DNA of 64,000 bases from NCBI GenBank assembly GCA_032372955.1, contig GCA_032372955.1_4725.1, one strand, 5' to 3'. A program made the position numbers and the translations under genes. A model generated the notes under the pieces. It had not been told where the DNA came from. It ran no database searches and saw nothing but the letters and a program-made list of their open reading frames with translations. How positions within the stretch are numbered: the first letter of the stretch is position 1; every line of letters starts with the position of its first letter. Source of the stretch: Escherichia coli. GTDB lineage: Bacteria; Pseudomonadota; Gammaproteobacteria; Enterobacterales; Enterobacteriaceae. Below are positions 13,262 through 60,541 of the stretch, piece after piece.

Positions 13262-13265
13262 TATT

Positions 13266-13297
13266 CCCTCTCCCTTCCCTTACGGGTTGGGAGAGGG
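13266..13297. terminator. conserved Y/R hairpin, copy 2
   Basis: ccctctcccttccc-ttac-gggttgggagaggg, then cttatgctgtc. Confidence 0.7.
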
Positions 13298-13331
13298 CTT
13301 ATGCTGTCTTATTTCGCATTACTCCAGTTTA

Positions 13332-13356
13332 TTTCGCGACTACATTACCTAGGTGA
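13332..13356 (+). promoter_or_regulatory. conserved 25-nt promoter-like motif, copy A
   Basis: TTTCGCGACTACATTACCTAGGTGA, located 35 nt after hairpin copy 2 and ~200 nt upstream of gene 13559. Confidence 0.55.
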
Positions 13357-14605: not shown

Positions 14606-14932
14606 ATGATTACTCGAGAAATCATTTACGACGCTATTATCGAATGCCGCCATCGCGTCATGCGTGGAACGGTGTATAACTACCACTTAAACAACATTAT
14701 CAGTGAATGTACGGCGGTGATGACTAGCGCGCTGGGTAAACCTAGCGCTATCGCACTCTATCCAAACATCACTGAACAGGAGCAAATCAATATCGAAAAC
14801 CAACGTCGAGTGAATCGCCAATACGATGTAACAGCCATGCACGCATGGCTTATCGTTGCAGCGAAACTCAACACGCTTCTCACTGAGAACGGCTGGAAAT
14901 TTTCACCTAATGAATTCATGACAATAAGTTAA
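14606..14932 (+). CDS. hypothetical protein
   Basis: 108-aa ORF, 6 nt after the previous stop. It is followed by the bidirectional hairpin at 14949-14980. Confidence 0.55.
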   Translation: MITREIIYDAIIECRHRVMRGTVYNYHLNNIISECTAVMTSALGKPSAIALYPNITEQEQINIENQRRVNRQYDVTAMHAWLIVAAKLNTLLTENGWKFSPNEFMTIS

Positions 14933-14948
14933 TCAAAGCGGTCATAAC

Positions 14949-15002
14949 CCCTCCTCCTTCCCTTACGGGTTGGAGGAGGGAACCGCACAATCTTTTTTTT
15001 TT
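14949..15002. terminator. conserved Y/R hairpin, copy 3, plus a T-run (bidirectional, between convergent genes)
   Basis: ccctcctccttccc-ttac-gggttggaggaggg. A T-run lies at 14992-15002. TTATG is on the minus-strand side (14943-14947). Confidence 0.7.
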
Positions 15003-15006
15003 GCGT

Positions 15007-16617
15007 TTAAAATTCTAAATCAAATTGTAATTCATTACTCGGTGCTGCGTTTTCATCGAACTTGTTCCACGGACCTTTACCTCCCTCGGAGACAGGTTGT
15101 CCGCCAACCTTGCGGCAATATACTGCTTTCTTACCGTAATCATCAGGAAGCATCCCGATGGTTTGGAATGGCATCGCGAAATGTTTGTCTTCAGGTTTCG
15201 TTGAACCGTTATCCGGTTGACGGTCTTTCCCTAATGCAAAGACCTGCCAGCTTTGACGTTTGCCGGGTTCCTTAACGATATCAACAATCACTTCAAGGTC
15301 AATCTCGCGGTCAATCCCTTTACAACCATCCCAGTAACTTAAACCTGCGACCTGGTCAACGAACTCTTCATCGTTACCATCACGTGCACGCATCTTCGCA
15401 TCGGATGACAGCTGGTGTACGGTCATGCCTAAAATACGTTTAACGCTGCAGAGGTTACGGACTTTGTTAAAGAGTTCTTGGAGCCATGCGCCGGTCGGCC
15501 CATTTCTATCCAGCCCTTCCGATGAGAACATTTTCAGATAGTCAATGAACAACGCCATGACTTCATAACCCATGCGTTCGAAATGGTCGATGAGATTAGC
15601 GAGTTGTTTATAACTCATCCCATCAACACGACGCATACAAACAGAGAAACCCGCATCATTGAACACCTTCAACACATAACGTGATGCCTCGCGAGGGTCA
15701 ATCTTACGAATATCGACATATTCGCCCGTTTCCTGTTCTCGCATGTTCTTGTATATTTGAAGCGTGTTTTCTTCCACTTCGTTTTCTGTCGACAAATGAA
15801 TCAGTAATGCTTTCTTTGCTCGCTCCGGAAAAAAGAAATGGGGTTTATTGTACAGTGCCAGATGCGTGAACAGTTTTAACAACACACCTGACTTGTTCCG
15901 GTGCTGCATCGCACCAATCAGTCCTAAGGTACCGCGACGTAAAACACCGACCGACCCCAACATTTTATTAAAACCTTGCCAGCCGGTTACAAACCCACCT
16001 TCAGGACTGTTACGTTCCATCGCTTTGACGAACATACGTTCAACTTTCTCGATATCGTCTTCACTGTCAGCGATAAAGCCGTCAATCATACACGACATCT
16101 CTTCGGGATTTTCGGTATCCATTTCGATACTGTCTAGCGATAATTTCAAATTCGCCATCGCATCGAAAAATTCTTTATCCCCAAGTCGCCCGTTACTGAT
16201 ATCCATGTACGTGTTTCTAAAGGTTTCGAAAACACGACGACGGGTAATCAGATTACGTAATTCGTTGTAATAGAGTGAACAGACCTTACTGATATGAGCG
16301 TCGTCTTCGATATCGTACAGTCCGTCGGCGAGAATCTCGTAAAGATTGCTTTGCTCAAGGCAATCTAAACGTATCCTTTGTAACAACTGTTGTTTATCGA
16401 AAGGTTCCGATAATGGTTGTTCCAACATCCAATGAATGGTATTCATCAGGTTGTTGAAAACCTCTCTATCTACGTCTGTAGCGAGATGGTTTTTCGGGGG
16501 TTCGACTTTATCTAAGACGGATTTAACATGTTCGATCGTACTGGGATCGGGATGGTTCAATTGTGCATTACGAAACAGTAACGTAATAATCTTAATGGCT
16601 ATCTGTTTTGGGTCCAT
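15007..16617 (-). CDS. DnaB-family / RecA-fold replicative helicase-like ATPase
   Basis: Motifs read by eye: GAMQHRNKSG (Walker A-like), MALFIDYL (Walker B-like) and VHQLSSDAKMR (DnaB H3/H4-like). I set the start at ATG 16617 (AAGGA upstream). The track's GTG at 16701 has no RBS and would overlap the divergent gene. Confidence 0.5.
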   Translation of the reverse strand: MDPKQIAIKIITLLFRNAQLNHPDPSTIEHVKSVLDKVEPPKNHLATDVDREVFNNLMNTIHWMLEQPLSEPFDKQQLLQRIRLDCLEQSNLYEILADGLYDIEDDAHISKVCSLYYNELRNLITRRRVFETFRNTYMDISNGRLGDKEFFDAMANLKLSLDSIEMDTENPEEMSCMIDGFIADSEDDIEKVERMFVKAMERNSPEGGFVTGWQGFNKMLGSVGVLRRGTLGLIGAMQHRNKSGVLLKLFTHLALYNKPHFFFPERAKKALLIHLSTENEVEENTLQIYKNMREQETGEYVDIRKIDPREASRYVLKVFNDAGFSVCMRRVDGMSYKQLANLIDHFERMGYEVMALFIDYLKMFSSEGLDRNGPTGAWLQELFNKVRNLCSVKRILGMTVHQLSSDAKMRARDGNDEEFVDQVAGLSYWDGCKGIDREIDLEVIVDIVKEPGKRQSWQVFALGKDRQPDNGSTKPEDKHFAMPFQTIGMLPDDYGKKAVYCRKVGGQPVSEGGKGPWNKFDENAAPSNELQFDLEF

Positions 16618-17415: not shown

Positions 17416-17426
17416 GGATACTTTCA

Positions 17427-19649
17427 ATGAATGATAAAACCCTTCTTAGCCAACAGGTCGCGGCCACTCGCCAGTTCCTGACCGCTAATGGTAGCAAACC
17501 AGCAGACAAAGGTCTGGAGAACACCTTCCTGTCTATGGAATCTGCTTCTAAGGTTGATTTCAAATCCATGGACAAACTGGTTAACGAAATGGATGTTAAG
17601 AGCTTCAGCAGCGACATCCGTAAAGCAGAAGAACCGGTTCTGTCCATGCTGGGCTTCGAAACCACCACTCCGGAAGAGAAGCAGCGTATTGAAGAACAGC
17701 TGTTCACCATGAACGCACAGCAGGCTCGTGCAGCAGCACTGATCATGCTGGCTCATGGCAACCCGGTGGAATATGCTAAACAAGCACGTTCCATGAACAT
17801 CAGCACCACTCCGTCTGGCCGTGAAGTTGACAGCTCTAACTTCGTCATGATGGCCGCCGATTCCTGCGGTTGCGAATCTGAAGAACTGGTTCAGCTGTCC
17901 TACGACCAGAAAGAACTGCGTGACATGATGCCGTACTCCGTTGTGTTCAACGTGAAGGCTTCTCGTCTGAGCCGCATGGGTAACGAACTGTACAACACCA
18001 TCGTTCTGGCTCCGAACCAGATCGGTTACGACGTATCTTTCCGTCGTCCGCTGGTGTTCAACCACCTGCGTCGTAACGCTGACGGTACTCCGGCTGATTG
18101 GGTACGTCGTCCGCTGCTGGATGCGTTCATGTACAACGACGTTCTGTCCAACGACGTGACCGATCTGCATCCGATCTATCGTGCTGACGATGCTAACGCG
18201 CAGTACTTCGTTGACAAAACTATCGTTGCTCCGCGTGACATCGAAATTAAAGGCGTAACTTACAAAACGTCTTACCTGGCCGTTGATAAACTGATCGACA
18301 TGATCGGTATTGCTGAAGACGATAGCATCCTGGCTAACGGTTACAGCGACAACACCGACGCGCTGGACGCTCAGATCACGCTGACCAAAATCCTGGTGGA
18401 AATCAAATCCACCAAACACAGCAAAACCTCTTACGTACCGTTCGACGTATCTGGTCTGATCACCAACGGTTTCCAGAAATCCCTGGAAGGCGACTTCCGC
18501 AAAATGACCCTGGCGTTCGACACCCACTCCATCTTCGTTGATGAGAACACCGTTGACGTTAAAGGTGCACGAGCTGAAGCGCTGCAGGACATCATCGATT
18601 CGAAATCCGCTGCTCAGCTGGCAATCGAAGTTTACGGTTCTTCCAACGTAGAGAAAGCCGGTCTGCGTGTTAACGGCGCTAACGCTGAACTGTATCGTCT
18701 GGTCGATCGTGACAACATCGAACAACCGCGTAAGGGCGAAGAGTTCAAACAGCTGGCTGAAGACCTGAGCTTCAAACTGGTTGGTTACGAACTGCGTATC
18801 CGCCGTAACAACAGCAACCGTCGTGAGCGTGGTAAGCACCTTGACTTCAACATGAAGCAAGAACGTTACGCAATCGGCCTGCTGGCTCCGTTCTCCATTC
18901 CTCGTCCGCTGGATTGGGAAGAAAACGCTGCTGACCTGGACGTTCTGATCCAAGCTGCTAACGCACGTTTCGACAACCTGATGGTTGAGAAACTGTTCAG
19001 CTACAAAGACGCACTGAAAGCGGTTGCGACCTCTCGCTTCCGTCAGTTCGGCGACATCCAGATCGAAGGTTTCGGTCGTTACCTGATCCGTCCGTGGTTC
19101 GAAGAAATCAATCTGGACCTGGAGAAATCTGTTCAGGGTACCACCACTGCAGAACGTCGTGCTGAAGTGTCCGCTGCGATCATGAACGTGATTCGTGAGA
19201 TGGCATACCGCATGTACTCCGAGTCTGGTTATCAGCCAGCTCTGCAGCTGCTGTCTTCCAACGCTGATGAGAAACCGCGTTGCGTAGTAGCAACTGACAA
19301 CTACATCCCGCAGTTCCTGCAGACCGATGGCGATTTCCGTACCGTTGGTGTGAGCTTCAACTTCGTGGTTGTAGATAACCCGAACGTCATGCTGCGCGAT
19401 AAGATCTTCGTGACCCTGTCTCGTGGTATCCAGGGTTCTCCGGATCCGCTGACCTTCGGTATGTTCCTGTATGTACCGGAACTGGTATCTGTTGCTCAGG
19501 TTACCCGTAACGGTCAGGTTTCTAAAGAAACCATGGTTCAGCCGCGCTGCCGCTTCGTTAACAACTGCCCGCTGCTGGGTCTGATTAACGTTGTGAACCT
19601 GCGTAAGGTCTACACTGAAAACATCAAGCTGCCTGTTCAGACTAACTGA
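17427..19649 (+). CDS. putative major capsid protein (giant-phage size class)
   Basis: 740 aa. It has the strongest host-like codon optimisation in the window (CTG, CGT, GGT, AAC, TTC, GAA dominate), which implies very high expression. As I recall, the size matches phiKZ-class capsid proteins (~750 aa). It has its own upstream motif and a strong hairpin at 19749-19778. Confidence 0.6.
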   Translation: MNDKTLLSQQVAATRQFLTANGSKPADKGLENTFLSMESASKVDFKSMDKLVNEMDVKSFSSDIRKAEEPVLSMLGFETTTPEEKQRIEEQLFTMNAQQARAAALIMLAHGNPVEYAKQARSMNISTTPSGREVDSSNFVMMAADSCGCESEELVQLSYDQKELRDMMPYSVVFNVKASRLSRMGNELYNTIVLAPNQIGYDVSFRRPLVFNHLRRNADGTPADWVRRPLLDAFMYNDVLSNDVTDLHPIYRADDANAQYFVDKTIVAPRDIEIKGVTYKTSYLAVDKLIDMIGIAEDDSILANGYSDNTDALDAQITLTKILVEIKSTKHSKTSYVPFDVSGLITNGFQKSLEGDFRKMTLAFDTHSIFVDENTVDVKGARAEALQDIIDSKSAAQLAIEVYGSSNVEKAGLRVNGANAELYRLVDRDNIEQPRKGEEFKQLAEDLSFKLVGYELRIRRNNSNRRERGKHLDFNMKQERYAIGLLAPFSIPRPLDWEENAADLDVLIQAANARFDNLMVEKLFSYKDALKAVATSRFRQFGDIQIEGFGRYLIRPWFEEINLDLEKSVQGTTTAERRAEVSAAIMNVIREMAYRMYSESGYQPALQLLSSNADEKPRCVVATDNYIPQFLQTDGDFRTVGVSFNFVVVDNPNVMLRDKIFVTLSRGIQGSPDPLTFGMFLYVPELVSVAQVTRNGQVSKETMVQPRCRFVNNCPLLGLINVVNLRKVYTENIKLPVQTN

Positions 19650-19748
19650 ACTACCGTAGCTGCTTCGTTGGACGATATTCTTGACGACAACGTTGCGGAT
19701 GGTTTCATTGCACCGGACATTCATCCGGCACCGTGATACATAAGTCAG

Positions 19749-19811: not shown

Positions 19812-19836
19812 TTTGACGCTTACATTACCTAGGTGA
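19812..19836 (+). promoter_or_regulatory. conserved 25-nt promoter-like motif, copy B
   Basis: TTTGACGCTTACATTACCTAGGTGA, located 34 nt after hairpin copy 4 and ~150 nt upstream of gene 19986. Confidence 0.55.
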
Positions 19837-35300: not shown

Positions 35301-35309
35301 CAGCATATC

Positions 35310-35341
35310 CCCTCCTCCTTCCCTGTTGGGTTGGAGGAGGG
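35310..35341. terminator. conserved Y/R hairpin, copy 6 (between convergent genes)
   Basis: ccctcctccttccc-tgtt-gggttggaggaggg, then ttatg. Confidence 0.7.
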
Positions 35342-35351
35342 TTATGTTTGG

Positions 35352-45388: not shown

Positions 45389-45451
45389 AACCCTGCCGTA
45401 AACCGTCATAAAACGCTCCAGAACGAACGGAACGCATAAAGACGTATAAGA

Positions 45452-45483
45452 CCCCTCCTCACCCAATAACGGATGAGGAGGGG
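45452..45483. terminator. conserved Y/R hairpin, copy 7 (divergent variant with a larger loop)
   Basis: cccctcctca...tgaggagggg, a 10-bp perfect stem. It lies between the endolysin and the convergent gene 45683-46225. Confidence 0.55.
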
Positions 45484-45682
45484 CTTAACAGGTGTTCGTG
45501 TTTATTCAGGTTGGTCTGGGTCCCTGGCCGCTTGAGGAGATCCACAACCCTTTCAACACCACGCTTCATACGAAGCGCTCAATGAGAAAGATAAGCGTGC
45601 AACCACGCAGATTGTTACAACCAAATTGTAGAAGAGCAATAGCCGAGCTGTACAAAACCCATACTATTGCTCTTTATGCTTA

Positions 45683-46366: not shown

Positions 46367-47260
46367 ATGGCAACTCAAGTTTCGCTTACTTTAAAAACAC
46401 CTTGGCAACTTATCGTTGATGAGATTAACAAACTCAACGCCGACACTGGTGCCAGCTTCCAATACACCGACCTTAAATACGTTCTTAAAGAAAAGAATCC
46501 TTCTGCTCCAGAAGCAACTTTAACGCTTAGCCCTGGTGATGGTACCCCTTACTTCAATAACCGTGATGTTACCTACCATCGTCTGGATCTGGCTAAATGG
46601 TTCCAGAAAATCGCTGTACGTGTTAACGTTACTGCTGACACCACCATCGGTGATGTGGTTGACCTTGTAGCTCAACGCTACGGTATGATCACACCGACCG
46701 GTGAGAAGTTCCTGGATAAAGATAAAGACATCAAAGCCGATACGTTATCTAATCCGGTTACCTTCAACGAGCATGGTATCCAGACGATCACCCTGGAAGC
46801 TAAAGAAGATTCGTTGGCGTGGTACGGCTCTGTTCAAGTTAAAGTTTATAACACCACGCTGGATCTGGCTAACATCATCAAGGTTACCAATCTGGGTAAC
46901 TTAACCTACGTTGATGAAGGCGACGGCACCAAAACGTCAGCACGTCTGTTAACCTATCCGTTAGACTTCAGTACTTACACCGCAGGTTTACAAGCTATTA
47001 CCAGCAACGATACCAAGATCGATGCAGGCTTAGCAGGTAACCTGACTACCCTGATCAAAGAGCAGACTGGTGTAAGTGATGATATCATCAATGAACTGAA
47101 AACCAATCTGCAAACAGCTACCTTTGTCTATAACGGTGCTACCACCGGGTCTACTGACAAAGGTGTTAACGCTACGTACAGCAATGTGCTGGTGCTGTCG
47201 TTAGCTGACGGTACTCACACCTACGGTAAAGCAGTATTCGGTTATAACGTTTCCGAATAA
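46367..47260 (+). CDS. paralog family B protein
   Basis: AGAGG RBS. Family motifs: TYHRLDLAKWF, LAWYGSVQVKVYN and a C-terminal HTYGKAVFGYNV. It is followed by the hairpin at 47277-47308. Confidence 0.6.
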   Translation: MATQVSLTLKTPWQLIVDEINKLNADTGASFQYTDLKYVLKEKNPSAPEATLTLSPGDGTPYFNNRDVTYHRLDLAKWFQKIAVRVNVTADTTIGDVVDLVAQRYGMITPTGEKFLDKDKDIKADTLSNPVTFNEHGIQTITLEAKEDSLAWYGSVQVKVYNTTLDLANIIKVTNLGNLTYVDEGDGTKTSARLLTYPLDFSTYTAGLQAITSNDTKIDAGLAGNLTTLIKEQTGVSDDIINELKTNLQTATFVYNGATTGSTDKGVNATYSNVLVLSLADGTHTYGKAVFGYNVSE

Positions 47261-47276
47261 TTTTAATTAATCTCTC

Positions 47277-47308
47277 CCTTCCTCCTTCCCTGTTGGGTTG
47301 GAGGAAGG
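47277..47308. terminator. conserved Y/R hairpin, copy 8
   Basis: ccttcctccttccc-tgtt-gggttggaggaagg, then tttatg. It marks the end of the structural block, just before the ORF-free region. Confidence 0.7.
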
Positions 47309-47399
47309 TTTATGTTTGTGATTATTCTTCTCTTTTATAATTTCTAATGATAAGATTAAGTACCTGGAGTAAAAGTTTACAGATGTTGTAAATGTATTT

Positions 47400-47740
47400 G
47401 GAAAGTAAAATTTCCACGACCTCGGCCCCTTCGGGGGACGGGGGAGGAGCGAAGTCCTTTAGAGACGAGCAACAGGATAACTCTAAGAAAAAGAAAAACT
47501 AAACGAGCGAAGCGAGTTTATGTTTTTATCCTTAGAGTTATCAAGCTATAAGCGTAGCGTTAGCGTATAACGGTTATGTCGTATACGAATGCAATGAGTA
47601 TAGACGAGATACTCTGATGAACAACGTGAAGAAGAGTATCACAAATGTTTTTTGAGTTATCCGGATTTAACTAGCATGTAACGAAGTGTAATGCACAGAT
47701 GACATGTGTTACCGTTAAGGTAGTAAACACATGTTATCCA
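47400..47740 (+). ncRNA. candidate structured-RNA region (array of stem-loops); strand and function unknown
   Basis: The hairpins are: 47420-47443 (10 bp, cUUCGg loop); 47476-47542 (12-bp perfect outer stem gataactctaag/cttagagttatc with an inner imperfect stem); 47579-47607; 47608-47640 (gatactct/agagtatc); and 47702-47734 (acatgtgtt/aacacatgt). There is no ORF of 60 aa or more on either strand. Confidence 0.3.
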
Positions 47741-47990
47741 TTGTTTTGAAGATAAGCTTATTAACTTACTTTTAAATCAATTTAAATATACAAACAACTT
47801 AAACATACCAAGATAAAACAATTGAACCTAAGATAAACAAGATAACTTAGACAATACACTTTTAACGAATACAGATAACATCTTACTTAAATCAAAATAC
47901 CTATCCTCGTTTACCTTCCTTGCTTGCAACACCTCTTCTAAATCCATCCCTTCTTAAGAAACAACAAAACCCTTACTGTAACACAAATCC
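47741..47990. repeat. AT-rich non-coding segment with AGATAA/GATAAC iterons and a CTTACTT(TT)AAATCAA direct repeat
   Basis: AGATAA occurs at 47750, 47811, 47831, 47840 and 47873. The direct repeats are at 47765-47780 and 47882-47895. Confidence 0.5.
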
Positions 47991-48015
47991 TTTCACGACT
48001 ATATTACCTAAGTGA
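47991..48015 (+). promoter_or_regulatory. conserved 25-nt promoter-like motif, copy C
   Basis: TTTCACGACTATATTACCTAAGTGA, located 82 nt upstream of gene 48098. Confidence 0.55.
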
Positions 48016-48097
48016 TGCGTACGTACGATGTTCGTATTGCGTCAAATAGAACTCAATACGTTGTTTAATTAACGTGAAAAACAGAGGAACTTTTTAA

Positions 48098-48880
48098 ATG
48101 AACGATGAAATCATTTTTGATACCATGTTTACTGGAGATGAATACCTGGCGTTACCGAGCGATGTTCAAAACGAATGCGTGAAGGTAGCATGCTACAGCG
48201 GCGGTCAGGCTGGGATGCGTGTACGTTGCGTTGACGGGACGAACGGGAAAGTTGTTTGGCGTGGTGCTCACACGTACCCTTACCTGCTTACCGGCAACAA
48301 GAATTGGTACGCTCATCGCAGCCAGCATCCTGCACGGATGAGCGCGAGCGGATTCGTGGTACGTGGTGCGTTGGATGAACGGGTGGAACGCATCGAGATC
48401 ACCGATCGCGCGTTCATCGATCAGCTTGCACAGGTTGCTTACGATGAGGGACGTGCAACAGGGCGATACGGTTGGTTGAAGGTGAACAGCGATACGCAAT
48501 TACAGGTAGGATTCCATCACGCGCTTCCTGGGTGGGCGAACCATACCGTTGGAACGTATTACACCAAAAAGCTTACCATGGTGAAACCTTACATGGCGGA
48601 TGCGAGCTTGGAGGCAACGGATCAGATGCATCAATTGCTTCGCATGTATTATCCACGGGTGGTGCATCCACTTGGGTTCGCTTGGGTCAGCGAAGTGCGC
48701 TACAACCCACGCAAGAAACGCGTTGAAGCGAAGGTGCTTAACGAACGTTGGTTACCGGTTGTGCAACCAGGGCTTGACGATGAATCCATCATGATGCGGG
48801 TAAGCCGAAGCCGGTTCGTACAATGGGATGCTACCATGCTACAACGCCCACAACACGTTACAGGAGAAACGTTCGCATGA
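48098..48880 (+). CDS. hypothetical protein (260 aa)
   Basis: AGAGGA RBS. It is the first gene after the ORF-free region and the promoter-like motif at 47991-48015. Confidence 0.6.
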   Translation: MNDEIIFDTMFTGDEYLALPSDVQNECVKVACYSGGQAGMRVRCVDGTNGKVVWRGAHTYPYLLTGNKNWYAHRSQHPARMSASGFVVRGALDERVERIEITDRAFIDQLAQVAYDEGRATGRYGWLKVNSDTQLQVGFHHALPGWANHTVGTYYTKKLTMVKPYMADASLEATDQMHQLLRMYYPRVVHPLGFAWVSEVRYNPRKKRVEAKVLNERWLPVVQPGLDDESIMMRVSRSRFVQWDATMLQRPQHVTGETFA

Positions 48881-51837: not shown

Positions 51838-51852
51838 TAAATAAACCATAAA

Positions 51853-51888
51853 CCTTCCTTCCCCGGCCTTTACGGCTAGGGAAGGAGG
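51853..51888. terminator. conserved Y/R hairpin, copy 9 (variant, between convergent genes)
   Basis: ccttccttccccggcc-tttac-ggctagggaaggagg. TTTATG is on the minus-strand flank (51847-51852), and a T-run lies at 51903-51909. Confidence 0.6.
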
Positions 51889-51907
51889 TTGTATAGCATT
51901 TCTTTTT

Positions 51908-58889: not shown

Positions 58890-58921
58890 CATCCTCCCTT
58901 CCCTTACGGGTTGGGAGGATG
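58890..58921. terminator. conserved Y/R hairpin, copy 10 (between convergent genes)
   Basis: catcctcccttccc-ttac-gggttgggaggatg, then gtttttatgcgc. Confidence 0.7.
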
Positions 58922-58925
58922 GTTT

Positions 58926-60492: not shown

Positions 60493-60517
60493 TTTTCACG
60501 GCTATATTACTTAAGTG
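60493..60517 (+). promoter_or_regulatory. conserved 25-nt promoter-like motif, copy D
   Basis: TTTCACGGCTATATTACTTAAGTGA, located 24 nt upstream of ORF 60542. Confidence 0.55.
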
Positions 60518-60541
60518 AAGTAAGCCAGCGAGATTTCAATC

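Follow-up and report, generated by a model that had tools for sequence, protein, structure and literature searches.

What occupies the large gene-free gap at 47261-48097 of the window (the whole 64,000-nt stretch of DNA analysed here, from Escherichia coli assembly GCA_032372955.1)? A preliminary description of the sequence had drawn attention to consecutive hairpins in this gap and had proposed one or more structured RNAs. The hairpin cluster is real and unannotated, and it is conserved under selection for structure on the plus strand. This conserved core is structured and strand-biased, and neither a coding nor a known-family explanation accounts for it. It is read here, with a probability of roughly one half, as an unannotated gene for a stand-alone, plus-strand structured non-coding RNA (ncRNA) of ~255-290 nt, which would run from ~47400 or 47368 to 47653. 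That such an RNA would be specific to Goslar-like nucleus-forming jumbo phages, as the same reading holds, is regarded as an even bet.

The window was assigned to a Goslar-like, nucleus-forming chimallivirus (~93% identity to MK327938 over 8.8 kb and 92.5% over the gap), with Escherichia phage vB_EcoM_Goslar (MK327938 / NC_048170; Goslarvirus) as closest reference. The longest open reading frames (ORFs) in the ~840-nt gap encode 31-39 amino acids (aa), and the absence of ORFs of at least 60 aa, noted earlier for part of the gap, was borne out for all of 47261-48097; the remaining gaps of the window are mostly 40-300 nt. The homologous gap of Goslar (854 nt) is the largest unannotated gap in its 237-kb genome and carries no annotation in the Goslar record, where the annotated non-coding RNAs are two group I introns and nothing else. 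It occupies 14,972-15,825 of NC_048170.1; within the core, window coordinate w equals Goslar 63086 - w, and the plus strand of the window is the minus strand of that record. The ~780-nt ORF-free region is not one RNA; the gap is a composite of terminator, conserved core, variable AT-rich DNA and a candidate early promoter. Its parts and the flanking genes are as follows.

46367-47260, same orientation as the core: upstream gene, a virion structural protein (DUF7941/phrog_1037), equivalent to Goslar_00022.
47273-47314, plus strand: terminator of the preceding virion-protein gene, with the hairpin CCTTCCTCCTTCCC-TGTT-GGGTTGGAGGAAGG followed by TTTATG.
~47350-47653, plus strand: conserved core.
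47655-47985, no strand assigned: variable, indel-rich, AT-rich segment with an optional hairpin, a cluster of AAGATAA(C/A) repeats (47749-47880) and a G-poor, pyrimidine-rich part.
47991-48015, plus strand: candidate early promoter TTTCACGACTATATTACCTAAGTGA of the virion RNA polymerase (RNAP), for the small-gene cluster from 48098; its core is conserved in relatives.
48098-48880, same orientation as the core: downstream gene of 260 aa, equivalent to Goslar_00021, the first in a run of small genes with no assigned function.

Conservation was assessed in 22 sequences (19 distinct over 47335-47656), and an alignment was made of 10 that represent the core variants, which group into three or four lineages. 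Relatives were found through homologues of the downstream protein (down to 41% identity) and by a DNA-pattern scan of metagenomes, and were taken from ~240-kb phage contigs of E. coli, Shigella and Salmonella assemblies and from metagenomes. Synteny was constant (DUF7941 gene, gap of 760-1000 nt, 260-aa gene). Across the 22 relatives the core was 88-100% identical, compared with 63-84% nucleotide identity for the adjacent virion gene and 41-64% for the downstream protein. In 100-nt bins, identity was 97-100% at 47401-47500 and 88-100% at 47501-47600, even against relatives L006 and L016, where the virion gene stands at 63-84%. Positions 47350-47647 were identical in four genomes (the window, Goslar and two IMG/VR contigs) that are otherwise 7-10% divergent; among these four the flanks differ and one lacks 47660-47750. 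Because the window and Goslar diverge in a mosaic fashion and share further identical tracts of 465-663 nt, the closer relatives alone are insufficient as evidence of conservation. The core and the promoter-like ~47985-48097 are the only conserved blocks of the gap; the sequence between them is indel-rich, and the ~40 nt 3' of the terminator are poorly conserved. In the downstream protein (48098-48880; homologues P0001-P0023) the middle part evolves fast (41-91% identity) and the N- and C-terminal parts are conserved.

More distant relatives were sought with the flanking proteins by tblastn against 50,697 phage genomes. A close copy (>90%) of the upstream gene was found in Goslar alone; 114 other records, less than 60% identical, were members of the virion-protein family too distant for a synteny test. 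Goslar was the sole match for the downstream gene. Protein-profile scans of IMG/VR returned three close relatives and no others, and a 21-mer scan of genome contigs gave one chance match, in a Clostridia genome. No similarity of the core to other cultured phages was found, and none to E. coli genomes at E<=10.

The core is made up of the following hairpins and tail.

47375-47393, plus strand: hairpin or palindrome of 7 bp, GTTTACA-GATGT-TGTAAAT; the stem is invariant, and variation is seen in the loop, where the L006 lineage has C for T.
47399-47416, plus strand: hairpin UGGAAA-GUAAAA-UUUCCA, invariant in all relatives; predicted 5'-terminal stem-loop of the RNA.
47420-47443, plus strand: hairpin with a cUUCGg loop, 9 bp and a G.A mismatch; supported by covariation.
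47444-47459, plus strand: small invariant hairpin GAGGA-GCGAAG-UCCUU.
47476-47542, plus strand: long hairpin of 67 nt with a 12-bp outer stem, an A-rich internal loop and an inner stem with one bulged U.
47545-47571, plus strand: either two short hairpins or mini-hairpin motifs that overlap, GCGTAGC (47552-58) and GCGTTAGC (47557-64).
47578-47605, plus strand: hairpin capped by a G-N-A triloop and carrying tandem G.A pairs; the best covariation of the core.
47608-47640, plus strand: hairpin of 8 bp (GATACTCT/AGAGTATC) with a 17-nt loop; stem and loop are invariant in the 22 relatives.
47641-47653, plus strand: tail CACAAATG and T-run; the T-run is 5 to 9 long among relatives, and conservation ends there.

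All hairpins and repeats of the preliminary description were present where it had placed them, including the triple AGCGT direct repeat (47551-47566) and a further CTTTAGAG copy (47457-47464); the AGCGT repeats are accounted for by the tips GCGAAGC, GCGTAGC and GCGTTAGC. Its proposal of structured RNA was supported for the first four hairpins, which belong to one strongly conserved element with pairing kept on the plus strand and have no Rfam or protein-family explanation. It did not stand for the fifth (47698-47738, in the variable segment; an optional hairpin with 13-nt arms, 92% complementary), which lies outside the conserved element, is absent in L004, L009, L010 and L015, and is mostly deleted in L013. 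Two hairpins (47375-47393 and 47399-47416) were added to that list, together with the terminator-type hairpin at 47277-47308 just upstream.

When folded as RNA, 47340-47660 (321 nt) reached -88.5 kcal/mol, compared with -66.7 +/- 4.7 for shuffled sequences (z -4.68; 0/100 shuffles as good), and 47400-47654 gave z -5.56 (0/200 shuffles as good). RNAalifold predicted 13 helices from the 10 distinct sequences, in which 99.4% of 860 pair cells held standard pairs. The comparison across related phages that had been suggested earlier did find compensatory changes: both sides had changed in four pairs (12 cells), a result reached by 0/500 shuffles and matched by only 0-1 in slid controls. Conserved structure with compensatory and wobble changes on one strand was found in this way, from few independent events. 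In the 47420-47443 hairpin, 47421/47442 is C-G, U.G or U-A and 47422/47441 is U.G or C-G; in L053 the G.A mismatch at 47425/47438 becomes U-A and the loop TTCG becomes CGAA, and the cUUCGg loop is kept in 21/22 sequences. In the 47578-47605 hairpin, 47589/47595 is A-U, G-C or G.U, 47590/47594 is U-A or C-G, and 47584/47600 is U-A or U.G, with a triloop of GCA, GAA or GUA (always G-N-A). Tandem G.A pairs and the tip GC-GAA-GC (GCGAAGC, 47507-47513) mark the long hairpin at 47476-47542, whose single change is A-U to G.U at 47502 in L011/L012. Single-base indels of the relatives fall within loops and linkers.

Other pairings had less support. A putative junction helix, 47363-66/47473-76, showed one two-sided change and two breaks. 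A competing long hairpin at 47546-47603, taken from the single-sequence fold, is compatible with many of the changes but fits worse: 94.9% of its cells are paired and no pair changes on both sides, whereas the local hairpins reach 98.9% and have two such pairs.

The strand was read from the pattern of these changes. The same helices mirrored to the minus strand were 92.7% paired, compared with 99.4% on the plus strand, and 61 G.U cells turned into A.C; the alifold energy was -79.0 kcal/mol on plus and -59.2 on minus. In the robust helices the one-sided changes (n=4) all led to G.U and none to A.C. The loss of pairing and of alifold energy on the minus strand, together with one-sided changes that are all G.U, argues that the functional form is a single-stranded nucleic acid of plus sense, which is also the orientation of the flanking genes.

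The same substitutions bear on whether the core instead encodes one or more small proteins, chiefly a 36-aa ORF at 47392-47502 (plus strand), which is intact in 22/22 relatives and in which a TAA to TAG change retains the stop. Its differences among relatives are mostly non-synonymous and are better read as hairpin compensation. It has no Shine-Dalgarno sequence, though the neighbouring genes have strong ones; its start codon lies within a hairpin stem, its product is of low complexity and without a PHROG family match, and it takes up only one third of the block that is conserved. The two remaining small ORFs are interrupted in relatives or lack support, and 1-nt indels elsewhere in the core argue against small proteins. 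With no ORF of at least 60 aa in the gap either, a coding role is considered very improbable.

Known RNA families gave no account of the core. Rfam 15 at gathering thresholds returned 0 matches in the whole window, so that the covariance-model search suggested in the preliminary description was answered without a family match; at E<=10 on 47200-48150 three chance-level hits were returned (13-19 bits, compared with thresholds of 58-171). ARAGORN found 0 tRNA or tmRNA genes in the window, in agreement with the earlier reading. A resemblance by eye to P3-P4 of RNase P (CUUCGGGGGA...GGAGG.AAGUCC) had no covariance-model match, and AAGUCC pairs locally. A resemblance to a CsrA site (ACAGGAU) was set aside because relatives have U or A in place of G, so that its GGA is not kept. 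Tandem Repeats Finder returned 0 arrays on 47200-48150, where only short two-copy direct repeats occur, and a tandem-repeat or CRISPR-like array or a type III antitoxin RNA was rejected for lack of head-to-tail units.

The edges of the core were then compared with the transcription signals of phiKZ. The phiKZ terminator motif is a hairpin followed by TTAT, an architecture shared by 47273-47314 (PMC10914365), and TATG is the core of the phiKZ late promoter (PMC7598289, PMC12809450). A phiKZ-type intrinsic terminator was found at 47273-47314 and not at the hairpins of the core, where a generic scan (47000-48300) gave 0 sites. The statement that no hairpin has a U-tract thus holds in the strict sense only, since a T6 run (47648-47653) lies 7 nt after the 47608-47640 hairpin and is kept in all relatives. 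As sequence conservation ends at this run, the 3' end of the putative RNA is placed there.

The terminator belongs to a family of near-identical ~34-nt hairpins, CCTTCCTCC(TT/AA)CCC-NNNN-GGG(TT/AA)GGAGGAAGG, usually followed by (T)TTATG, with members at 2019-2062, 13262-13303, 14943-14990, 35301-35345, 47273-47314, 51847-51890 and 58890-58925; the sequence GGAGGRRGGNTTATG occurs 9 times in the window, with 0.46 expected. The family has a conserved TT.TT or AA.AA mismatch and matches the architecture of the phiKZ terminator. Inverted copies in relatives suggest that hairpins have been flipped by template switching. Logan contigs were rejected as evidence of a transcript, as they simply end at this repeated terminator hairpin. 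A second ORF-poor gap at 45389-45682 (core ~45490-45680), between convergent genes, is near-invariant in 17 distinct relatives save for 1-nt indels; it ends with the hairpin AGAGCAATAG...CTATTGCTCT followed by TTATG (plus strand), has an RNA fold of z -2.4, and may be a second ncRNA of ~185 nt.

Upstream of the hairpins, the core opens with a further feature.

47350-47385, plus strand: promoter-like or operator-like block, kept in 22/22 relatives, with ATAAGATTARGTA, a variable 6-7-nt spacer and the quasi-palindrome GTAAAAGTTTAC (47369-47380); its promoter or operator function is predicted.

The 12-mer GTAAAAGTTTAC occurs exactly 4 times in Goslar (0.023 expected), at 15706-15717, 173087-173098, 81200-81211 and 176758-176769. 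Three copies lie within annotated intergenic gaps, and the fourth (176758) is at a gap edge and overlaps the 3' end of Goslar_00192. One copy is ~110 nt upstream of a chmA early-promoter-like motif, with extended similarity, and another is upstream of a NUMOD1/HNH endonuclease gene. Middle promoters of phiKZ have a TACT motif centred at -22 with an A-rich repeat before it, and the chmA gene of phiKZ has early and middle starts (PMC8244752). By its resemblance to this description, GTAAAAGTTTAC is a candidate for a middle promoter or an operator; GTAAAAGTTTAC(A/T) agrees with the phiKZ motif as worded, and its palindromic form could equally be that of an operator. The hairpin at 47375-47393 overlaps the 12-mer, so it may represent DNA operator half-sites instead of RNA. 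With the phiKZ -22 rule applied to GTAAAAGTTTAC, transcription would start at ~47400, the first base of the 5' stem-loop.

These edges also bear on the proposal that the core is a cis-acting RNA without a promoter of its own, made by read-through of the late virion mRNA as a processed or 3' untranslated region (3'UTR)-derived species that affects stability, nuclear export or localisation. The core does lie directly downstream of a late structural gene in the same orientation, the conserved TT.TT mismatch could make the terminator hairpin leak, and both PAK_P3 and phiKZ are known to make processed 3'UTR ncRNAs, 120-210 nt in length (PMC10914365); the late ones of PAK_P3 would be a parallel. A full phiKZ-type terminator nevertheless stands between gene and core, and it is followed by 40 nt of poor conservation and then by the promoter-like block. 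A helix closing the 5' leader on the 3' end, predicted for a transcript from the TATG of the terminator, is not conserved in relatives. This origin of the core is held to be improbable.

For a stand-alone ncRNA gene, the following course is proposed. The upstream late gene would stop at the phiKZ-type terminator (47273-47314), and the phage RNA polymerase would start at the middle-type promoter or operator at 47350-47385 that contains GTAAAAGTTTAC. The transcript would open with the 5' stem-loop at ~47400, fold into seven or eight consecutive hairpins and end at the conserved U-run. Its hairpin tips would share one architecture, in which a C-G pair and tandem G.A are followed by two pairs and a G-N-A triloop or a GCGAAG loop. 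A search for antisense targets of at least 11 nt in the 64-kb window gave only chance-level 11-12-mers, the best one in a segment that varies among relatives. Since the loops and linkers vary no more than the stems do, and the search yielded no base-pairing target, the RNA is proposed to act in trans as a scaffold or decoy that binds protein, a role that is offered tentatively and remains doubtful.

The DNA downstream of the core raises a different explanation. The segment 47655-47985 (Goslar 14951-15400) varies among relatives in repeat copy number and by indels, and its plus strand is strongly G-poor, with a GC skew that falls to -0.6. Taken over 300 nt, GC content is lowest at ~47450-48150 in the 64-kb window and at 14901-15600 in the 237-kb Goslar genome (28-31%, compared with 46.5% GC overall); these stretches fall mainly in the AT-rich segment and extend into the 3' part of the core. 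The gap holds the sole AGATAA cluster of the genome. On its far side, the 25-nt motif TTTCRCGRCTAYATTACYTARGTGA has 4 copies in the window (0.01 expected), all on the plus strand and upstream of ORFs (13332-13356, 19812-19836, 47991-48015 and 60494-60518), and ~10 weaker matches in Goslar (84-94% identity, E 5e-8 to 0.54), all in gene sense. In these phages the early promoters are AT-rich, ~10 nt long and centred close to -10 (PMC7598289), and TTTCRCGRCTAYATTACYTARGTGA is a candidate for the virion-RNAP early promoter consensus of Goslar-like phages. In some relatives a duplicated copy of the motif lies within the gap.

From these features the core might be part of a replication-origin module, acting either as a plus-strand single-stranded DNA (ssDNA) signal for priming or primosome loading, like single-strand initiation (ssi) or single-strand origin (sso) elements, or as an origin primer RNA, next to AT-rich DNA (47655-47985) that would serve for unwinding and carries AAGATAA repeats, with a promoter at its flank. 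Goslar has no larger gap, and the AT-rich part of this one is the lowest in GC; the other three early-promoter copies in the window have no comparable upstream region. Strand-specific hairpins with GCGNAGC or GCGNNAGC tips, as in ssi/sso-type signals, were found in the core: GCGAAGC, GCGTAGC and GCGTTAGC form a local cluster of three within 58 nt on the plus strand, and relatives create more (CCGAAGG in L053, where the UUCG loop is inverted, and two GCGAAGC copies in the L006 lineage). Mini-hairpin motifs of this class have an extraordinary stability in DNA form and far less in RNA form; they are known at the complementary-strand origins of G4, St-1 and alpha3, at RSF1010 ssiA and in the hairpin promoters of N4 (PMC13037366). 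Strand-specific conservation of hairpins suits an ssDNA signal equally well, and a jumbo-phage non-virion RNA polymerase (nvRNAP) can transcribe ssDNA promoter-specifically (PMC7598289).

Set against an origin are several results. Cumulative GC skew, in the window and over the whole of Goslar, does not turn cleanly at the locus. The adjacent genes include none recognisable as an initiator, helicase or primase, and the downstream 260-aa protein, considered as an initiator, matched no Pfam or PHROG family and gave a low-confidence AlphaFold model (pLDDT, the predicted local distance difference test, 58.6). Co-evolution of the AT-rich repeats with this protein was not seen; L014 combines a window-like spacer with a 42%-identical protein. 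GCGNAGC is not enriched genome-wide (26 found, 26 expected). The cUUCGg loop, of a type typical of RNA, and the reliance on G.U pairs favour RNA, and a pure DNA signal leaves the promoter-like motif and the T-run boundary unexplained. An origin module is accordingly rated as possible and on balance unlikely. Its specific form, in which the ~840-nt gap would be an origin of a nucleus-forming jumbo phage whose middle-type promoter drives a primer RNA or exposes the plus-strand hairpin priming signal, is rated a little lower again.

Several of the observations weigh against a stand-alone RNA gene. Transcription of the core, its strand and the transcript ends are predicted from sequence. With DNA parameters the fold reaches z -5.0 on either strand, a significance equal to that with RNA parameters, and the minus strand also folds significantly as RNA (z -4.2), so that folding alone cannot name the molecule or the strand. 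The independent covariation events are few, with three or four lineages and most helices never varying, and the invariant G.U pairs are located at helix ends. The 3' hairpin of the core is AU-rich and, with its 7-nt spacer and T6 run, makes a poor intrinsic terminator, unlike the phage's own. No base-pairing target or partner protein was identified. Several tips of the core equal the DNA-stable GCGNAGC/GCGNNAGC motifs known at phage and plasmid priming sites (PMC13037366), and the core adjoins the most AT-rich DNA of the genome, which suggests an origin.

The core is very likely important to the phage, since it evolves more slowly than its structural neighbours, is housed in the largest gap without genes and borders on the most AT-rich DNA of the genome. 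For nucleus-forming jumbo phages, Goslar serves as the E. coli model. An ncRNA would raise the question of what a large structured RNA does in a virus whose transcription takes place in the nucleus and translation in the cytoplasm, and whether it is exported, retained or packaged. An origin would place the initiation of replication, for which the literature searched gave no such description in this family; it would be the first chimallivirus origin candidate in that literature and would tie structured RNA or ssDNA to initiation inside the phage nucleus. In either case the locus now has exact coordinates, a structural model that includes covarying pairs, and motifs that are candidates for promoters. 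A strand-specific RNA-seq time course of Goslar, covering 5-60 min of infection, exists (bioRxiv 10.1101/2023.09.20.558163).

Elsewhere in the window, two ORFs at 17424-19724 (minus strand, 766 aa) and 17427-19649 (plus strand, 740 aa) overlap almost completely on opposite strands. The plus-strand ORF corresponds to the major-head-protein-like gene of Goslar (Goslar_00041), and its antisense partner is probably a stop-free shadow.

The core was compared with several known systems. With the sponge RNAs CsrB and RsmZ it shares a string of hairpins that repeat one loop architecture, and it differs in having a single ACAGGAU site, not conserved, and no series of GGA loops. The phi29 pRNA is likewise a phage RNA, acting within a protein machine, and no similarity to it was found. 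ColE1 RNA II, T4 oriF/oriG and the T7 origin transcripts are origin-coupled RNAs that share with the gap the order of promoter, structured transcript and AT-rich unwinding region. The gap differs from them in showing no sign of an RNA-DNA hybrid and no antisense regulator; its downstream plus strand is G-poor, so that RNA made by read-through would not be rich in G. Rolling-circle plasmids have comparable single-strand initiation signals in their sso elements.

The mini-hairpin DNA of the G4, St-1 and alpha3 complementary-strand origins and of RSF1010 ssiA shares strand-specific hairpin clusters, GCGNAGC/GCGNNAGC/CCGAAGG tips and AT-rich origin DNA with this locus, and the octamer GCGTTAGC of St-1 and alpha3 is that of 47557-47564 (PMC13037366). 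These ssi systems differ in belonging to ssDNA phages and plasmids, in using mostly host primase or RNAP and in spanning 40-300 nt, and the core has in addition a UUCG loop and promoter-like and T-run edges.

Phage-encoded ncRNAs, including those of phiKZ (of the same virus family), are intergenic, structured, conserved within a genus and located beside phiKZ-type terminators, as is the core. The core has no sequence or Rfam relationship to them, is longer with its seven or eight hairpins, and appears to have a promoter-like motif of its own, whereas theirs arise from premature termination in the 5'UTR. They were seen by sequencing and Northern blot, and the core is known from its sequence alone. 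The core matches no known family, and its kind, a structured phage ncRNA of unassigned function, is already precedented.

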